Shown: one piece after another, positions 33,771 through 40,439 of the stretch
Layout of the letters: each line of letters starts with the position of its first letter
How positions within the stretch are numbered: the first letter of the stretch is position 1
Source: an uncultured Candidatus Saccharibacteria bacterium
GTDB lineage: Bacteria; Patescibacteriota; Dojkabacteria; SC72
Length of the DNA: 51,761 nucleotides
Direction of reading: 5' to 3'
Assembly: GCA_964621555.1 (NCBI GenBank)
Contig: CAZUOO010000002.1
Location: forward strand, 1-51,761
Notes under the pieces: model-generated
The model's input: the letters and a program-made list of their open reading frames with translations, nothing else
Database searches by the model: none
What the model was told of the DNA's origin: nothing
Program-made: the position numbers and the translations under genes

Positions 33771-34799
33771 CTAATCTCTTCTAGCCGCTTTCATATTACC
33801 TACAATTACATCTTCAACCTTCTTAACAGCCTCCTCCAAACTATCCGCAACCACATCTGCACCAGCAGATCCGGCATGCCCTCCCCCACCCAATACACGC
33901 GCAAATACAGACACATCGAAATACTCTTCATATGACCTAAAAGAGATCCGATAGGTATTAGAAACCTCACCATTTGGGTACAATAGAAAGCCTAGACTGT
34001 TACTAGTGGCACGAAGATAGTTATTTGCTAAATAATTAGTTAATCTCTTCAAATCATTCCTACCTATTTCAAAAGAACGAATAGAATCCAAATCAAGGAA
34101 CATGTAATTATAACCTTCCTTGACATGATAGTTTGAGAAAAATGCAGTCATAACCTTAAAATCAGTTTCAGTAAAGATATTGAGATTCCGTAGCATTTTT
34201 GCCACACCCGCTCCATTATCAAGTAGCTGAGAGTAGATATTGAGAGATTTATGGTAATCGTACACCGGCTGAAAGGTAAAACTCATGGTATCTGTAACCA
34301 TTCCTAATGCAACTTCATCATACGCTCCATCATAGATTTCATATCCAAGTTTATTTACAAGCAAATCAAATAGAATCTCTACCGTGGAAGATGCATTAAC
34401 AATCATATGCAACTTATATTCACTATTAATAGTTTCACTCTGATGATGATCGATGCAAACAATAGAGGTAGAATTATCAGACACAGCTTTATCAAGCGCT
34501 TCAACATCATCCGACACACGAGAAAAATTAGAAACATCGAGAATAAATAAGGTGTCTATTTTCGAATCCGCAACAACCTCTGCAATATCTCTAGTATCAA
34601 AACTCTCAGCACCATCTAATGAAGTTAAACCAGGCAATGCCCCACCCTTAACAACAGGCACAACAAATTTATCTGGGAAATTCTTCTTAATCATCTTGAA
34701 GAGAAAAAGTACAGAAATAATGCTATCTGGATCAGGACCTAAATGCCCTACAATTGCAATACGGTTTGATTTAGAAATGATACTTGTAAGCTTCTCCAA
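33771..34799 (-). CDS. nrnA: DHH/DHHA1 phosphoesterase (NrnA-like nanoRNase/pAp phosphatase)
   Basis: IAIVGHLGPDPDSI, CIDHHQS and GGGGHAGSAGA motifs are present. The start is moved to the TTG at 34799, because the first 35 codons of the track ORF translate tRNA-Ser. Confidence 0.8.
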   Translation of the reverse strand: MEKLTSIISKSNRIAIVGHLGPDPDSIISVLFLFKMIKKNFPDKFVVPVVKGGALPGLTSLDGAESFDTRDIAEVVADSKIDTLFILDVSNFSRVSDDVEALDKAVSDNSTSIVCIDHHQSETINSEYKLHMIVNASSTVEILFDLLVNKLGYEIYDGAYDEVALGMVTDTMSFTFQPVYDYHKSLNIYSQLLDNGAGVAKMLRNLNIFTETDFKVMTAFFSNYHVKEGYNYMFLDLDSIRSFEIGRNDLKRLTNYLANNYLRATSNSLGFLLYPNGEVSNTYRISFRSYEEYFDVSVFARVLGGGGHAGSAGADVVADSLEEAVKKVEDVIVGNMKAARRD

Positions 34800-34822
34800 A
34801 TAACTACACAGTGAAGTTAATA

Positions 34823-34910
34823 TGGCGGAGAGGCAGGGATTCGAACCCTGGGTAGGTTGCCCTACGACGGTTTTCAAGACCGTTCCATTCGACCACTCTG
34901 GCACCTCTCC
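34823..34910 (-). tRNA. tRNA-Ser (anticodon UGA), CCA encoded
   Basis: The reverse complement GGAGAGGTGCCAGAGTGGTCGAATGGAACGGTCTTGAAAACCGTCGTAGGGCAACCTACCCAGGGTTCGAATCCCTGCCTCTCCGCCA folds as a tRNA. Features: anticodon loop CTTGAAA, long variable arm, TTCGAAT T-loop. Confidence 0.9.
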
Positions 34911-34950: not shown

Positions 34951-35928
34951 CTAACCCTTCGTAAAGATCTCTCTAATAACATCATCAAGACCCATTTCAT
35001 CAATGTTTAAATCCTCAACTTGAAAACTCTTTAATAGTTTTGCAGAAACATTAGGAACACTATCCCTATGAACTTTCAATACGCCATTAATATCATCCAA
35101 CCTAACGATCTCCCCTATCGCTTCTAAATCAGACCTTAAAATCTTTTTATTAGCTACAAAAGAAATAGTCTTATACTGTGCATGAACTTTAATTAAGTTT
35201 GATACACTACCGTCGTACATAATACGACCATCATCAATAATTATAACCCGCTTACAAAGCTCCTTAACATCATCCATATAGTGACTAGTTAACATCACGG
35301 TTGTTTCATACTTACGATTATACTCTTTAAAGAAAGTCCTCAACTTCTTCTGCATAACAACATCCAAACCAATGGTAGGTTCATCAAGAAATAGTACCTG
35401 TGGACTATGCAATAAGGAGGAAAGCAGTTCACACTTCATCCTCTGTCCAAGTGATAATTTACGAACAGAAATATTAACTACACTCCCAATATCAAGAAGA
35501 TCAATCAAATCGTCCAATCTTGGATAGAAGTCGGAATCACTAATCTCGTATATCTCTTTATTCATAAGGAAGGAATCCATAGCAGGAAGATCCCACCACA
35601 ACTGATTCTTCTGCCCCATAACCAATGAAATCCTCTTAAGAAACTCTGTATTTCTCTCCCATGGAGTATATCCAAGCACAGAAACAGAACCGCTAGTTGG
35701 GTAAAGTAAACCTGATAGACTCTTTAAAGTAGTTGTTTTTCCTGCTCCATTTGGACCAATGAAACCAACAAACTCTCCCCTCTCTATATTAAAGGAAACA
35801 TTATCAACCGCTTTAACAGTACTATACTCTCTCTTAAATAGATTCTTGATAGTCCCTTTAAGACCTGGAGCTTTTCTATATATTTGAAACTCTTTCCGAA
35901 GATTTTTAACCTTAACGTCGTACTTCAT
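34951..35928 (-). CDS. ABC transporter ATP-binding protein (ABC-2 type); no permease gene adjacent
   Basis: Walker A GPNGAGKTT, signature LSLGQRMK, Walker B LFLDEPT, plus a C-terminal domain of about 90 aa. Confidence 0.85.
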   Translation of the reverse strand: MKYDVKVKNLRKEFQIYRKAPGLKGTIKNLFKREYSTVKAVDNVSFNIERGEFVGFIGPNGAGKTTTLKSLSGLLYPTSGSVSVLGYTPWERNTEFLKRISLVMGQKNQLWWDLPAMDSFLMNKEIYEISDSDFYPRLDDLIDLLDIGSVVNISVRKLSLGQRMKCELLSSLLHSPQVLFLDEPTIGLDVVMQKKLRTFFKEYNRKYETTVMLTSHYMDDVKELCKRVIIIDDGRIMYDGSVSNLIKVHAQYKTISFVANKKILRSDLEAIGEIVRLDDINGVLKVHRDSVPNVSAKLLKSFQVEDLNIDEMGLDDVIREIFTKG

Positions 35929-35950: not shown

Positions 35951-35979
35951 TTGACGTGGGAATAGTATTAAAATAATAT
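35951..35979 (+). promoter_or_regulatory. Candidate promoter of the surface-module operon (TTGACG-17 nt-TAATAT)
   Basis: -35 TTGACG at 35951-35956 and -10 TAATAT at 35974-35979. The -10 overlaps the first ATG (35978). The predicted TSS is near the second ATG (35987), suggesting a leaderless mRNA starting at MKIFRL. Confidence 0.35.
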
Positions 35980-37195
35980 GATTAGTATGAAAATATTCCG
36001 ATTATCTATATCTACAATTCTAGTATTAATCCTTTGCACTAATCCTGTAATTGCCAACAACCTACAATCCGATAATTTTAAGATTGTGGACGCCACAACA
36101 AACTCTGGAGGGGAAGTAACAGGATCGAGCAACTTTAACCTCCTCAATACTGTAGGTAGTTTCTCTGGAGACCCTCGTCTGCTATCCACCAACTATAGAG
36201 CGGGAATTGGAACCGTTGAAATATACCTTGCAAATACCCCTAAGATTAGCTGTTTTGAAACCACTACAAATGGGACATCACAGTGCACCACAGGTCCCTC
36301 ATACTTAAATAGCGATGGAATGACAACCGTATGTGGACCTAACGGATGTTATGACCGAGGTAGATTTGAAATAGACATACAGAGAAACCCTGCAGATACG
36401 TTATACGGAATACAAGTGTCCACAGATAGCTTTACCACAGATACTAGATACCTAGACGGAGTAACCGGGAAGCCTAAAAACTCCAGTCTCAGAACAATAG
36501 CTGACTATAAAACAAAGGCAGGTTGGGAAACTGACGTGACCAATGTTAAAGGTCTCACATCAGGAACGCAATATACTATTCGCGCCGTGGCTCTTCACGG
36601 TGACTTCACGGAATCAGAGGTAGGACCATCTGTATCCGCAACCACTGCAAATACACACATGAGTTTCGACCTAGATATAAGCGATGTAAACGGAATAACA
36701 ACCGAAAGCGCACCACCATACCTTGTTGAATTCAACAACACCAGAACTTTAATACAAACAGGACCCCCACGAACATCCTTAAATGTAATATGGATGGATA
36801 TATCAACCAACGCTCAGGGAGGATTTGCACTAGTACAAAAGGGCGAGTATGGAGGATTATTTAGTACGTCGCAAAGCTACACGGTACCATCAGAGAATGC
36901 CAATCTAGATGGAGAAAGTGAAGGATTTGGCCTACAAAGCTACTACACAGCACAAGAGAAGCAAACAGGAAGTGGGAGTGGAGATCTTGGAGCTATCACC
37001 ACCAATGCCAACTACGCAGGTTCAGGCAATACGGTAGGGAAAATTGCGCAAGTCTATTTAAAAATGTATGAGTCAAATAAACCGCTTCTTAATGGGAGAA
37101 TGGGGATACAGCTTAAAGCTAGAGTATCTGGATTAACCCCTGCCTCTACCGATTACTCAGAAGACATTACTTTTATTATGATTCCTAGATATTAA
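35978..37195 (+). CDS. Secreted beta-rich surface protein (S-x-N-F/Y mini-repeats, FN3-like middle, shared C-terminal domain)
   Basis: Signal peptide MKIFRLSISTILVLILCTNPVIA/NN (start at 35978 or 35987). Mini-repeats SDNFKI, SSNFNL, STNYRA. FN3-like GLTSGTQYTIRAVALHGDFTESEVGPSVSATT. The C-terminus ends DYSEDITFIMIPRY. Confidence 0.75.
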   Translation: MISMKIFRLSISTILVLILCTNPVIANNLQSDNFKIVDATTNSGGEVTGSSNFNLLNTVGSFSGDPRLLSTNYRAGIGTVEIYLANTPKISCFETTTNGTSQCTTGPSYLNSDGMTTVCGPNGCYDRGRFEIDIQRNPADTLYGIQVSTDSFTTDTRYLDGVTGKPKNSSLRTIADYKTKAGWETDVTNVKGLTSGTQYTIRAVALHGDFTESEVGPSVSATTANTHMSFDLDISDVNGITTESAPPYLVEFNNTRTLIQTGPPRTSLNVIWMDISTNAQGGFALVQKGEYGGLFSTSQSYTVPSENANLDGESEGFGLQSYYTAQEKQTGSGSGDLGAITTNANYAGSGNTVGKIAQVYLKMYESNKPLLNGRMGIQLKARVSGLTPASTDYSEDITFIMIPRY

Positions 37196-37292
37196 CCCCA
37201 TATCTTATAACCTAATAAAGTTGACTTCCAACATCAATTTGTCATATTCTTAAAAGACAATTAACCTATACTATATAACCTAATACTTCGAT

Positions 37293-38420
37293 ATGAAAAC
37301 ACTTCTCAGAGCAGGACTATTAGTCGTTGCTACAACCTTCCTTCTCTCGCTAATACTTCCGAAATTCACTGCAAATGCAGACAATCTTAATGCGGTATAC
37401 TTCTTCCTCTCAAGAATGCAAACAAATATCAACGGTAGTTCAGCGACAGTTGAATATTTAATTGCACTCTCCCCTACCCAAACAATACCAACCAACGGTA
37501 CTGTAACAATACAGTTTCCGGATGCAGACGACACCAACTGGTGTAGAACTGCGGGTGCACTAACCGTAACCGGTGAGTCATCATCAATTGTAGACCTAAC
37601 ATCCACAAACTGGGATATCGATGCAGTACTACCAAACAGCGGTTCAGCCCTAACAGCTACATGTACACAAGGAGCAGGAGCAAATTCATCAGATACAATA
37701 GTAGTATCAAACGTTGGTGCGCTAACAGCATCCACAACATATGGATTCAAATTAACAAATGGTACAGCTGCAGGTGTGATTGGAACTGACGATACCGCAG
37801 GTAGCCACCCAACAACCGTAACCACACAAAGTGGTGCCACATTAGACTCTGGAACATTCGACGTAGAATTGGTATCTAACGACACAGTTACAGTTTCCGC
37901 AACAGTTAACGCAGCACCAACCGTAAACTGTTCAATAAGTACAAATACAGTAGATTTAGGAGTACTCTTCCCAGGTGGTGCATATTCAGCAGCCAGTCAT
38001 ACAATTTCAACATCAACATCCCTTTCAACCAGTGGATACTACTGGGCAGCATACGGAACGGGTGACGGAAGTACCGACGCAGGATTGTACAAGTCAACAG
38101 CTACTACATACCTTCTTCCGTCGACAGGAAGTACTACGATTGACCTAACAGGTGTTGGGACTGAAGGATTTGGAATGACAGTATCTGACCCTGACGCAGG
38201 CGGTGCAGCAGTAGTTCCTGCAGATTTCTCAGACGCATCACCAGGAATATTTGGCGCATTGGACAGGACAAGTGCAGGAGCAAGATTAATACTATATCAG
38301 AACGGTTCACAAGCCAGCCCTGATAACTCAACGATTACATACGGTGCGAAAGCAGGAGGCTCTGCAGAGGCAGGATCATACTCGGAGAATGTACATTTCA
38401 TCTGTGGAGCATACTATTAA
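37293..38420 (+). CDS. Secreted Thr/Ser/Gly/Ala-rich surface protein sharing the C-terminal domain of the preceding gene
   Basis: Signal peptide MKTLLRAGLLVVATTFLLSLILPKFTANA/DN. Very few Lys/Arg, 4 Cys. TEGFGMT and the terminal SYSENVHFICGAYY parallel SEGFGLQ and DYSEDITFIMIPRY of gene 1. Confidence 0.75.
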   Translation: MKTLLRAGLLVVATTFLLSLILPKFTANADNLNAVYFFLSRMQTNINGSSATVEYLIALSPTQTIPTNGTVTIQFPDADDTNWCRTAGALTVTGESSSIVDLTSTNWDIDAVLPNSGSALTATCTQGAGANSSDTIVVSNVGALTASTTYGFKLTNGTAAGVIGTDDTAGSHPTTVTTQSGATLDSGTFDVELVSNDTVTVSATVNAAPTVNCSISTNTVDLGVLFPGGAYSAASHTISTSTSLSTSGYYWAAYGTGDGSTDAGLYKSTATTYLLPSTGSTTIDLTGVGTEGFGMTVSDPDAGGAAVVPADFSDASPGIFGALDRTSAGARLILYQNGSQASPDNSTITYGAKAGGSAEAGSYSENVHFICGAYY

Positions 38421-38455
38421 AAAACTCCTATGTTTAAAAATGTCTAACTACATAA

Positions 38456-39505
38456 ATGAAATTAATACCAGGAAAATATATCCTCACCACAGCAATATCC
38501 CTCTACCTTCTCTTTTCCCTAGCTCTTAAACCAGCAGATGCTCTTGGAGAAGCTAGCCTCTCATTAGGATTTGCCCCAACTGCAATGTACCTAACCCTTG
38601 AACCTGGAGAAACATATGAAGATGATATAACATTTTGGAATCTCTCCCCTTCCACGTTAAAATATCGAGTGCAAGTTAAAGGTTTCAAACAGATTGAAGA
38701 TGTCCCTGGAACTTCTCGTATACATACAGACTTCGAAGAAAGCAACGACCCATACTCAGCGTCTAAATGGGTTGAGGTTGAAGCTACAGACGTAGAACTT
38801 CATCCCAACGAATATTTCAAACTGCCTTTCAAAATCACTGTACCCAAAGATGTGGCTATTGGAGAATTCCACACCCTAATCTTCCTACAATCAATTCCAA
38901 ATCAAAACCCACTACAAGGATCAAGTACACTTGCAGACTTAGGATCTGGTCCTGCGATACTAATCAATACAGGGGATAATATAAGCGAGAGCGCTTCACT
39001 AGAATACTTCAAAACAGAGAAGAAATTCTATGAATACCCTCCTGTAACCTACCTAACAAGATATCTAAACAATGGCAATACACACATAACTCCAGCCGGA
39101 GATATTGTAATTGAAAACTTCCTAGGACAAGAGATAGATAGGATAACGTTCAATCCAAACAGACAAAGTTTGCTCAGAGCAAACTCAGCTGTATATACCA
39201 ACGATTGGGAAAATCCTCCAATATTCTTTAAAAATGGCAAAATAGCAATCGGACCTATAAAAGCCAAACTCATAACCACATATCGAGCAAACTTCCCCGG
39301 TTTCTCACCATTGAGTGCCACAACAACTTTTTGGATACTCCCATGGAAGATAATCTTGGGTGTAATTCTCGCAATCTCCTTCATCATCTACCTAATATCT
39401 AGAAACAAGGCTGAAAAAAAGAATGCAAAAAAAGCAATCCAAACTTCAGCTCCATACATTAATAATCCATCTACAAATTCCAATGAGTATAGAGAATACC
39501 CTTAA
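38456..39505 (+). CDS. Signal-peptide protein with two beta-sandwich-like halves and a C-terminal TM anchor (DUF916/DUF3324-like architecture)
   Basis: Signal ILTTAISLYLLFSLALKPADA. Motifs LTLEPGETYEDDITFWNLS and ITPAGDIVIENFLGQEIDRITFNPNRQ. TM helix ILPWKIILGVILAISFIIYLI followed by the basic tail SRNKAEKKNAKK. Confidence 0.75.
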   Translation: MKLIPGKYILTTAISLYLLFSLALKPADALGEASLSLGFAPTAMYLTLEPGETYEDDITFWNLSPSTLKYRVQVKGFKQIEDVPGTSRIHTDFEESNDPYSASKWVEVEATDVELHPNEYFKLPFKITVPKDVAIGEFHTLIFLQSIPNQNPLQGSSTLADLGSGPAILINTGDNISESASLEYFKTEKKFYEYPPVTYLTRYLNNGNTHITPAGDIVIENFLGQEIDRITFNPNRQSLLRANSAVYTNDWENPPIFFKNGKIAIGPIKAKLITTYRANFPGFSPLSATTTFWILPWKIILGVILAISFIIYLISRNKAEKKNAKKAIQTSAPYINNPSTNSNEYREYP

Positions 39506-40439
39506 AACATTTGCGATTGTATCAATAGCCACAATACTACTAACCTCTTTCCCACTAGAAAAGGATGCAGAAGCCAGCTCCATATCGACATCCCTCCAAG
39601 AATATACCCTTCAACCAGGTGACATTGAATTCGGTACTCTGGAATTTACAAGTAGTGAGAAAGAAGACCTTAAAATTAAATTAGATGTAAAATCATACGA
39701 CCCTGAAAAAGAAGTATTTTTAGACACCACCCCATTTATAGCTGTAAAACAGAGTAGCTACACTGTAAAACCTGGGCAGGAGATATCAATTGACTACGCC
39801 CTATCCATCCCCCTCCAACAACCCACCGGCACATATTTTAATGTAATTACAATTGAGCCTGAATTAGGAAACGACATTAACGGAAAAGGTGGAAGTATTA
39901 GCCTCAAAAACGGATTTGGATCACTATTTGCATTCCATATAGAAGATGGTGAAAACACCATAGATAAAATATTCATAGAAAAAAGCGACACTACATTAAT
40001 AATTGAAAAACGTGGATTCCCACTAATATCACCTATGACTGTGAAATATATATATAAAAACAACTCCAACTTCGTATTCAAGCCCCAAGGTGAAATACGC
40101 ATAGTGGATAAGGAGGGAAACCAGATACTAGAAAGAGTACAAATAAATCCTCAAAATAAAACCATATACCCAGGTGGAGAAATAGAAATACAGGAAAGCT
40201 TCAAAACATGGGACGACCTTGAAAAAGCACTCGATACTAAAATAATCACCGCAAGAATATACAATGGATTTACAGACAACTACCTAACCAATCAAGTAGA
40301 AGTATCCATAAAAGAACCTATTGGAGTTGTTGCAGTGCTAGCATCAATGATGATACTAGGAACAATCGCTGGAGTAGCTCGATTAATAAGCTATAAAATG
40401 GGATCTAGAAAGAAAGTTAAAGTAGAACCTGCGCAGTAG
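39483..40439 (+). CDS. Paralogue of the preceding anchored protein
   Basis: The start is taken at ATG 39483 (MSIENTLKTFAIVSIATILL), a 23-nt overlap with the upstream gene. Motifs YTLQPGDIEFGTLEF and FKPQGEIRIVDKEGNQILERVQINPQNK. TM helix VVAVLASMMILGTIAGVARLI followed by SYKMGSRKKVK. Confidence 0.7.
   Translation: MSIENTLKTFAIVSIATILLTSFPLEKDAEASSISTSLQEYTLQPGDIEFGTLEFTSSEKEDLKIKLDVKSYDPEKEVFLDTTPFIAVKQSSYTVKPGQEISIDYALSIPLQQPTGTYFNVITIEPELGNDINGKGGSISLKNGFGSLFAFHIEDGENTIDKIFIEKSDTTLIIEKRGFPLISPMTVKYIYKNNSNFVFKPQGEIRIVDKEGNQILERVQINPQNKTIYPGGEIEIQESFKTWDDLEKALDTKIITARIYNGFTDNYLTNQVEVSIKEPIGVVAVLASMMILGTIAGVARLISYKMGSRKKVKVEPAQ

Follow-up and report, generated by a model that had tools for sequence, protein, structure and literature searches.

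A four-gene island of Dojkabacteria with WxLIP-like membrane anchors and secreted proteins sharing a C-terminal domain: a putative non-covalent surface-display complex

INTRODUCTION

The Csc/WxL clusters of Lactobacillales and Listeria encode small WxL proteins, large WxL proteins and a WxLIP, in which DUF916 and DUF3324 are followed by a transmembrane (TM) helix (Siezen 2006, PMC1534035; Hassan and Williamson, PMC9772566, PMC10599100). WxLIP binds WxL (PMC10599100, PMC9772566), and strand complementation is predicted for the pair, with WxLIP completing the WxL sandwich by a parallel strand (PMC10599100); the title of PDB entry 9i25 reads 'WxLIP ... bound to long WxL'. In a survey of the family, >91% of WxL sequences came from Firmicutes (PMC9772566). 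Here, a four-gene island (g1 to g4) with a comparable layout was analyzed in a bacterium of the candidate phyla radiation (CPR, Patescibacteria), on contig CAZUOO010000002.1 of assembly GCA_964621555.1; the whole stretch of 51,761 nucleotides is referred to as the window.

A large part of bacterial diversity belongs to the CPR, whose members seem to live attached to other cells. Most of their surface-building proteins are annotated as 'hypothetical', type IV pili and type IV secretion systems being the exceptions. The literature searched contained no link of DUF916 or WxL to CPR, the papers on DUF916/DUF3324 being concerned with Firmicutes or with unrelated topics, and nothing relevant to surface structures of Dojkabacteria; the statement of a first-pass annotation of the window that no such complex had been characterized in CPR agrees with this literature. 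Essential adhesins with FN3 or VCBS domains were described in the transposon sequencing study of Southlakia (PMC10633639) and could not be mapped to the family treated here.

As judged from profile comparisons, g3 and g4 are remote homologs of WxLIP, and g1 and g2 are secreted proteins with a common C-terminal domain that has no Pfam model. We consider it fairly probable, by analogy, that the four products form a non-covalent surface-display complex of the Csc/WxL kind, which is possibly, very distantly, related to the Csc/WxL clusters by descent.

RESULTS

A four-gene island with a conserved gene order

In line with the first-pass annotation, the largest plus-strand block of the window was an island of 4.46 kb (positions 35978-40439), in which the open reading frames (ORFs) g1 to g4 lie head to tail on the + strand. 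The annotation had also suggested a CPR-type host, and the homologs of all three query proteins carried the names Candidatus Dojkabacteria or WS6. It had listed no sortase, usher or ATPase in the island; neither these nor any other enzyme were found among the four genes in the ORF list and in Pfam and NCBIfam scans, the NCBIfam scan of the four proteins gave noise only, and none of the four matched a Pfam or NCBIfam model of usher/chaperone or sortase pilus machinery. Signal peptides and TM helices were predicted from hydropathy and sequence reading. All four proteins showed the signal-like hydrophobic N-terminal segment that had been expected of them (hydropathy/composition script), with A-x-A-like cleavage sites read from the sequence (VIA/NN, ANA/DN, ADA/LG, and AEA/SS).

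A species-level scan with one genome per species yielded 288 relatives of g3, of which 80 loci were fetched and scored with three kinds of hidden Markov models (HMMs), for the N-terminal motif of g1, for the C-terminal domain common to g1 and g2 (Cdom) and for the g3/g4 family. The order g1-type, g2-type, anchor, anchor, whose conservation in relatives the annotation had singled out for checking, was kept in 46/46 untruncated Dojkabacteria-type loci, each from a different species genome, a second WxLIP-like ORF following the first in every untruncated Dojkabacteria locus. Every one of the 13 loci that deviated from the g1-g2-g3-g4 order abuts a contig end. In a 734-kb relative, the block was followed by the genes for RNase HII, CysS, RecR, YbaB, and DnaX, as in the window. 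That the four genes are mere chance neighbors was rejected because of the 46/46 synteny together with the CPR-wide linkage and the natural fusions described below.

The anchors g3 and g4 as divergent relatives of WxLIP

The WxLIP-like membrane anchor g3 (38456-39505, + strand, 349 amino acids [aa]) was recognized from its ORF, profile matches and hydropathy, and the second anchor g4 (39423-40439, + strand, 338 aa from the first ATG) from its ORF and its paralogy to g3, which had been proposed before and was recovered by BLASTP with E 3e-6 and 22% identity over 202 aa. The likely start of g4 is M21 at position 39483, giving 318 aa, and the anchor sizes of 349 aa and 318-338 aa fit the WxLIP range of 320-380 aa. 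Hydropathy placed a single C-terminal TM helix at approximately aa 291-315 of g3 (about nt 39326-39400, + strand; peak at aa 289-318) and aa 280-304 of g4 (M21 numbering, about nt 40320-40394, + strand; peak at aa 274-303), in agreement with the TM helix and Lys-rich tail noted in the annotation; the tails read RNKAEKKNAKK and KMGSRKKVK, respectively. Among the four genes g4 was the fastest-evolving, with 24-53% identity across Dojkabacteria.

The DUF916-like domain of g3 (aa 45-147, nt 38588-38896, + strand) was delimited by its match to PF06030, the WxLIP peptidoglycan-binding domain formerly named DUF916, which was matched by 35/39 g3-family members with a best E of 1.1e-5. The g4 protein was assigned to the PF06030-type anchors only via its paralogy to g3. 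Searched against the PDB, the g3-family profile matched the EfmWxLIP1 chains 9i25_C and 9i1y_A at E 8e-5. For further comparison, five annotated WxL clusters from Enterococcus, Lactiplantibacillus, Listeria, and Lactococcus plasmids were used. The hhalign comparison of the g3/g4 family with their five annotated WxLIPs reached a probability of 95% (E 3.2e-8) in the first domain, after which the confident part of the alignment ends; at relaxed stringency (mact) the alignment was collinear from the signal peptide to the TM helix. With E-values that refer to small local databases, as do all local HMM E-values here, the g3-family HMM matched the WxLIPs of E. faecium and L. plantarum at approximately 1e-9 to 1e-10, and the Firmicutes WxLIP HMM spanned positions 32-272, covering both immunoglobulin-like (Ig-like) domains, in CPR relatives (E 1e-12 to 1e-6). 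The CPR relatives that bridge both WxLIP domains (CPR3, Parcubacteria, and other CPR) matched the g3 HMM at approximately 1e-57. Judged by these profile matches, g3 and g4 are divergent members of the WxLIP superfamily, and two tandem Ig-like, beta-sandwich halves are predicted for both from this homology.

A shared C-terminal domain in the secreted proteins g1 and g2

The secreted proteins g1 (35978-37195, + strand, 405 aa; ORF and hydropathy) and g2 (37293-38420, + strand, 375 aa; ORF and family alignment) are hydrophobic only at the N-terminus and end in ...FIMIPRY and ...FICGAYY, respectively, where neither an LPXTG motif nor a TM helix nor a basic tail is present. With an alternative start at position 35987, g1 would have 402 aa, as does P0196, to which it is 98% identical. 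Both were described earlier as Thr/Ser/Gly/Asn-rich and Lys/Arg-poor, which is reflected in Ser+Thr+Gly+Asn contents of 41% for g1 and 44% for g2 and Lys+Arg contents of 6.9% and 2.0%; g2 is acidic (composition script).

BLASTP found no match between g1 and g2. The predicted sharing of a C-terminal domain emerged at the profile level, where hhalign aligned positions 138-374 of the g2 family with 187-404 of the g1 family (probability 93%, E 2.6e-7). This domain, Cdom, is approximately 180 aa long and covers aa 222-405 of g1 (36641-37192, + strand; hhalign and alignments A6/A7), where it ends ...STDYSEDITFIMIPRY, and aa 196-375 of g2 (nt 37878-38417, + strand; profile alignment); the Cdom HMM matched g1 at E 1.4e-73. 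Among 1.84 billion representative proteins, the combined Cdom profile matched 621 clusters (50% identity) at E ≤1e-3 and 262 at ≤1e-10. Cdom ended ≤5 aa from the C-terminus in 138 of the 149 listed matches, in proteins of 113-2564 aa, with the terminal consensus A-[GTS]-D-Y-[TS]-[DE]-T-[LI]-T-[FLV]-[IV]-A-x-[GA]-x-[FY]-COOH. The Cdom proteins of relatives include domain-only small forms and cargo-bearing large forms, in which Laminin_G_3, DUF2341, fn3, GH16, Fib_succ_major, Lcl_C, and PT-HINT domains lie upstream of Cdom. The g1, g2 and combined Cdom profiles found nothing significant among PDB sequences, and Pfam scans of g1 and g2 revealed no homology to the SLH, LysM and CWB2 wall-display models.

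Linkage and fusion of Cdom and anchor genes across CPR

Cdom genes adjoined WxLIP-like genes in loci of CPR3, Nomurabacteria, Parcubacteria, Kaiserbacteria, and Saccharibacteria and in those of several genomes whose labels are doubtful, where the WxLIP-like gene had one to four neighbors ending in ...AGxYxxxLTY[IV]xTPx[YF]. An alignment of 33 distant Cdoms matched the broad Cdom profile with an hhalign probability of 98.8% and E 1e-16. Two Cdom proteins and one anchor were encoded in loci L081, L086, and L089, the first two being a three-gene version found in Saccharibacteria, and in locus L001 the order alternated (secreted protein, anchor, secreted protein, anchor). Natural fusions occurred in three independent lineages (P0338, P0353, and P0389/P0464) and consist of a WxLIP-like ectodomain, a TM helix, a basic loop, a second TM helix, the g1-type N-motif, FN3, and Cdom. 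By the classic fusion argument, they point to a physical or functional partnership of the anchor and the Cdom protein. A single ORF at positions 705-2288 of locus L080 matched both HMMs, perhaps as the result of a fusion or of a frameshift.

For several metagenome-assembled genomes, the taxon labels were unreliable. Loci L071, L072, L074, L077, and L087 are labeled Gammaproteobacteria and L085 and L089 Nanoarchaeia, and these labels look wrong: ComEC, ComEA, and a bacterial-type LeuRS are encoded beside the cluster in L089, and L072, a 661-kb contig, has CPR-like content. All seven are probably Patescibacteria. Directly beside comEC and comEA stands the Cdom/WxLIP-like cluster in two unrelated CPR loci, L001 (1827-3775) and L089 (622-2452); this adjacency may be a coincidence or a link to the DNA-uptake surface machinery.

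Relation of Cdom to the WxL domain

The WxLIP homology of the anchors raises the alternative of a true Csc/WxL cluster that has diverged to an extreme degree. Such a cluster would have the same partner and the same cluster grammar, in which Cdom is always C-terminal and comes in small and large forms, and the loci with two Cdom proteins and one anchor fit the minimum of '2 WxL + 1 WxLIP' (PMC10599100). The extreme C-terminal position, the two size forms and the clustering with WxLIP are an architectural match to WxL and not evidence of homology. Collinear resemblance to the WxL motifs was also seen and was clearest in the less diverged CPR relatives. In the Parcubacteria locus L082, 'TTNASDGFQVTVTQNSDF' resembles the WxL segment 'SDxRGxxGWTLxVKQxxQF' and 'AGDYETTLTYVVTP' resembles 'KYSTSLTWSLxxxP', to which 'DYETTLTYVVTP' and, in g1, 'DYSEDITFIMIP' were likened as well, and the best local hhalign segment between Cdom and WxL coincided with WxL motif 1.

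No statistic for this alternative reached significance. The WxL model PF13731 had no match in g1, g2, 81 family members, and 77 distant representatives. Three Cdom profiles (Dojkabacteria-only; broad, 147 sequences; distant-CPR, 33 sequences) were compared by hhalign with 8 genuine WxL proteins, with probabilities of 0.3-2%, and an unfiltered search with the WxL HMM (--max) gave nothing significant and at most 9.6 bits, in one domain. In Foldseek searches of the PDB with the whole g1 and g2 models, the WxL chain 9i25_A was not among the best 50 matches listed; in the PDB sequence set this chain is present and was matched by the WxL profile. These multidomain queries returned generic tandem-Ig matches with TM-scores of approximately 0.2 (integrin legs, MSCRAMMs, and Bap), and the g2 model found chain 9i25_C at rank 42. 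On the Cdom side, SCPU was matched once, weakly (E 0.0094), and pH 6 antigen below threshold (E 0.29); because of these echoes and that of CfaB (see below), the terminal 'AGxYxxxLT[aromatic]' strand is taken as generic to pilin-like sandwiches, which takes weight from the motif resemblance.

The first-pass annotation had compared the locus to the Csc/WxL clusters and placed Phe at both WxL motifs. Of the first claim, the WxLIP homology of the anchors and the layout stood, and a WxL domain in g1 and g2 could not be shown (PF13731 unmatched, hhalign ≤2%). Of the second, the collinear motif-level resemblance held and no Trp was found at the candidate positions, which read GGFAL or EGFGL plus TFIM in g1 and SGYYW or EGFGM plus HFIC in g2; the counterpart of motif 1 was ambiguous, forced alignments choosing either the EGFGL-type site or the upstream GGFAL (g1) and SGYYW (g2). 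Homology of Cdom to the WxL domain is, on these sequence comparisons, a minority possibility, and a true Csc/WxL cluster is to the same degree unlikely, although it is the best surviving of the alternatives to an analogous display complex.

The N-terminal motif of g1

According to the family alignment, the signal peptide of g1 is followed by an N-terminal motif, a segment with four Cys, an FN3-like domain, and Cdom, with the invariant cysteines C92/C103/C119/C124 (alignment A3); weak fn3 matches were found in 22/40 g1-family members. The AlphaFold2 (AF2) model had a predicted local distance difference test (pLDDT) score of 85 and a predicted TM-score of 0.73. The N-terminal motif (36056-36223, aa 27-82, + strand), delimited by conservation in A3, holds three S-x-N-[FY]-x-[LI]-like repeats, and its HMM matched 45/153 Cdom representatives and all Dojkabacteria g1 orthologs. 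Residues 21-63, which include most of the motif, were modeled as disordered in the monomer (pLDDT <50). Since it is conserved yet modeled as disordered, the motif is a candidate partner-binding or donor segment.

Enlarged g1 orthologs of 611-655 aa were found in some Dojkabacteria (P0290, P0304, P0311, P0314, and P0315; loci L024, L046, L047, and L055), and the five named proteins carry a Laminin_G_3 or pentraxin-like lectin domain, which suggests lineage-specific shifts in what g1 binds.

Conservation of g2 and the g1-g2 spacer

The most conserved of the four genes was g2, with homologs 58-82% identical and the four cysteines C84/C124/C213/C371 invariant. Its conservation resembled that of housekeeping genes; in comparison to locus L003, identities were 59% for g2, 55% for CysS, 49% for DnaX, and 67% for RecR. 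The AF2 model (pLDDT 84.8) showed an N-terminal beta-sandwich domain at aa 28-195 (+ strand), preceding Cdom.

A consensus scan placed a promoter-like site in the g1-g2 spacer (37221-37250, + strand), with TTGACT followed at 16-18 nt by CATATT or TATTCT. Within the island by itself, scanning for promoter and terminator consensus sequences gave nothing above chance, this site included. Across genomes, TTGAC[AT] was present in the spacer of 47/48 Dojkabacteria loci vs 6% of control windows, often with a TAxx[CA]T hexamer 16-18 nt downstream. Because of this conservation, g2 is probably transcribed from its own promoter, and the promoter-like site together with the housekeeping-level conservation would make g2 probably an abundant structural component.

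The spacer also holds an exact 12-nt direct repeat, TATAACCTAATA, at 37206-37217 and 37274-37285 and nowhere else in the window. The two copies, at a distance of 68 nt, enclose the promoter-like TTGACT, and no such repeat was seen in those spacers of related loci that were inspected. A subclade of Dojkabacteria (L017-L038, e.g., L017, L018, L024, L028, and L036) has a g2 leader of 200-290 nt with a conserved CTCTGCCCAATGTGAGAAG-like block, which is absent from the spacer of the window. In other genomes, CTGCCC stands just 5' of the first in-frame ATG of g2, taken as the start. A leader RNA element might lie behind the CTCTGCCCAATGTGAGAAG-like block or CTGCCC, or else a ribosome-binding context of an unusual kind.

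Fiber and coat as alternatives

An abundant g2 would also suit an usher-less donor-strand fiber or pilus, with g2 as the polymerizing major subunit and g1 as the tip or adaptor, in which the disordered, conserved N-motif of g1 would be the donor strand and g3 and g4 membrane-tethered, two-Ig, chaperone-like platforms. The disorder modeled within a conserved region of g1, the housekeeping-level conservation of g2 and its promoter-like site are compatible with such a fiber. Cdom ends in an aromatic residue and has Y at position -13, like chaperone-usher pilins, and weak Foldseek matches included a CFA/I chaperone-adhesin complex and the pilin CfaB (4y2l_F; probability 0.99, TMt 0.46). The completion of WxL by a parallel WxLIP strand is akin to chaperone donor-strand complementation (PMC10599100). 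However, g2 lacks a disordered N-terminal extension, its N-terminal strands being confidently packed in the AF2 model, the pilin matches are weak and partial, and the many huge multidomain proteins with a single terminal Cdom fit display better than polymerization. We therefore regard a fiber as improbable, and as a poorer account than a divergent Csc/WxL cluster.

Acidic, very Lys/Arg-poor composition is typical of S-layer proteins. Least probable of the three is an S-layer-like coat of g2 with g3 and g4 as membrane tethers and g1 as a minor accessory protein, which would suit the acidic composition of g2 with 2.0% Lys/Arg, its extreme conservation for an exposed protein and its promoter-like site, but g2 is small (~345 aa mature), no SLH or other S-layer model matched it in the Pfam scans, and the several divergent Cdom paralogs per locus in other CPR fit modular display better.

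Neighboring genes

An ABC-transporter ATPase gene (34951-35928, - strand) is divergent from g1 in the window and adjoins the module also in several close relatives (L013-L015, L035, and L048). It is not adjacent in L003 and is therefore probably no part of the module. The tRNA-Ser(TGA) gene (34823-34910, - strand) overlaps the 5' end of ORF 33771-34904, whose listed N-terminus is tRNA read-through; the true start of this DHH-family gene thus lies further downstream.

DISCUSSION

In the surface-display complex that we favor for g1 to g4, assembly would proceed without covalent links at the surface of a monoderm CPR cell. All four products would be exported by Sec, as their signal-like N-termini indicate. 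The anchors g3 and g4 would each be held in the membrane by one C-terminal helix in a type I topology, their Lys-rich tails facing the cytoplasm, and would expose two tandem Ig-like domains, the first homologous to the DUF916 of WxLIP. The anchorless g1 and g2 would be retained through their Cdom, bound to the DUF916-like domain of either anchor, a contact that we infer from the analogy together with the gene linkage and the natural fusions. Its likely mode would be beta-strand complementation of an incomplete sandwich, in the way predicted for WxLIP and WxL and since solved (PDB 9i25). The N-terminal parts would be displayed outward, namely, the beta-sandwich of g2 and the Cys-rich and FN3-like domains of g1, to which some relatives add lectin-like domains. 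With its variable insertions, g1 is a candidate adhesive component and probably the variable or adhesive part of the complex, and the presence of two anchors and two secreted proteins suggests specific pairs. Across CPR, the pair of Cdom protein and WxLIP-like anchor would serve to display proteins of very different size. A role in fiber formation, adhesion or host attachment is speculation.

Several observations weigh against this reading. The g3 protein itself scored 15.1 bits (E 0.023) with PF06030, below the Pfam gathering score of 27.3, and the DUF3324 Pfam model was absent from the families listed for the 39 g3-family members. The motif NQIDKxxxYFDLK, conserved at the N-terminus of WxLIP (PMC10599100), is absent from g3, which reads SLSLGFAPTAMYLTLEPGE at the aligned position and retained only [YF]-x-L-x-x-x-P. 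Since the hhalign comparisons of Cdom with genuine WxL proteins were non-significant and Cdom is not detectably a WxL domain, the binding mode is carried over by analogy only. The conservation of g2 is unusually high for an adhesin and fits a lattice or fiber subunit at least equally.

The module shares with the Csc/WxL clusters a homologous membrane partner of 320-350 aa, in which a signal peptide precedes the DUF916-like domain, a predicted second Ig-like domain, the TM helix and a basic tail, secreted partners with a common domain at the extreme C-terminus that in relatives has small and large forms, and a cluster without enzymes, commonly of two secreted proteins and one or two anchors. 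In contrast to the Csc/WxL clusters, its secreted proteins have no match to WxL Pfam models or profiles and no Trp-x-Leu motifs, its anchors lack NQIDKxxxYFDLK, the cluster contains two anchors rather than one and no LPXTG protein or sortase, the host belongs to CPR, not Bacilli, and the module has a fixed chromosomal position and a phylum-wide, core-like conservation.

With chaperone-usher pili (CfaB, Csu/SCPU, and pH 6 antigen) the module has in common a two-Ig protein proposed to donate a strand to an incomplete sandwich and the end of Cdom, 'A-G-x-Y-x-x-x-L-T-aromatic ... aromatic-COOH', with its weak Foldseek and HMM echoes. It differs in having neither usher nor outer membrane and a 'chaperone' that is membrane-anchored; no significant sequence or fold match links the two. 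As in display by SLH, LysM and CWB2 domains, a conserved terminal module would keep variable cargo on the surface independently of sortase, but the proposed receptor is not a wall polymer; it would be a dedicated membrane protein whose gene adjoins those of the cargo.

A wider reading has three parts, which we hold jointly to be unlikely. Cdom and the WxLIP-like anchors would be a general, CPR-wide, sortase-independent means of surface attachment, in which a membrane-tethered, two-Ig, chaperone-like protein permanently complements the incomplete pilin-like C-terminal sandwich of its cargo; in Dojkabacteria, the phylum-wide g1 to g4, conserved like housekeeping genes, would build an essential coat or fiber for episymbiotic host contact; and the Firmicutes WxL clusters would derive from this older system, as a late, Trp-bearing offshoot or by transfer.

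What appears new, judging from sequence, is the occurrence of WxLIP-type anchors with a different, unannotated partner domain throughout CPR and at the level of core genes in Dojkabacteria; its novelty is judged from the literature searched, in which neither DUF916 nor WxL was linked to CPR and most WxL sequences come from Firmicutes. The WxLIP family is thereby extended well past Bacilli, and an anchor able to work with a partner that is not recognizably WxL bears on how WxL systems evolved and work. With 621 Cdom clusters (50% identity) and 288 anchor relatives among species representatives, the module offers a testable handle on the CPR surface. As a C-terminal tag without Pfam annotation, Cdom would let surface-displayed CPR proteins be predicted, including lectin-like and glycosidase-bearing ones. 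Saccharibacteria are now genetically tractable and carry the three-gene version, so the display hypothesis is directly testable there.

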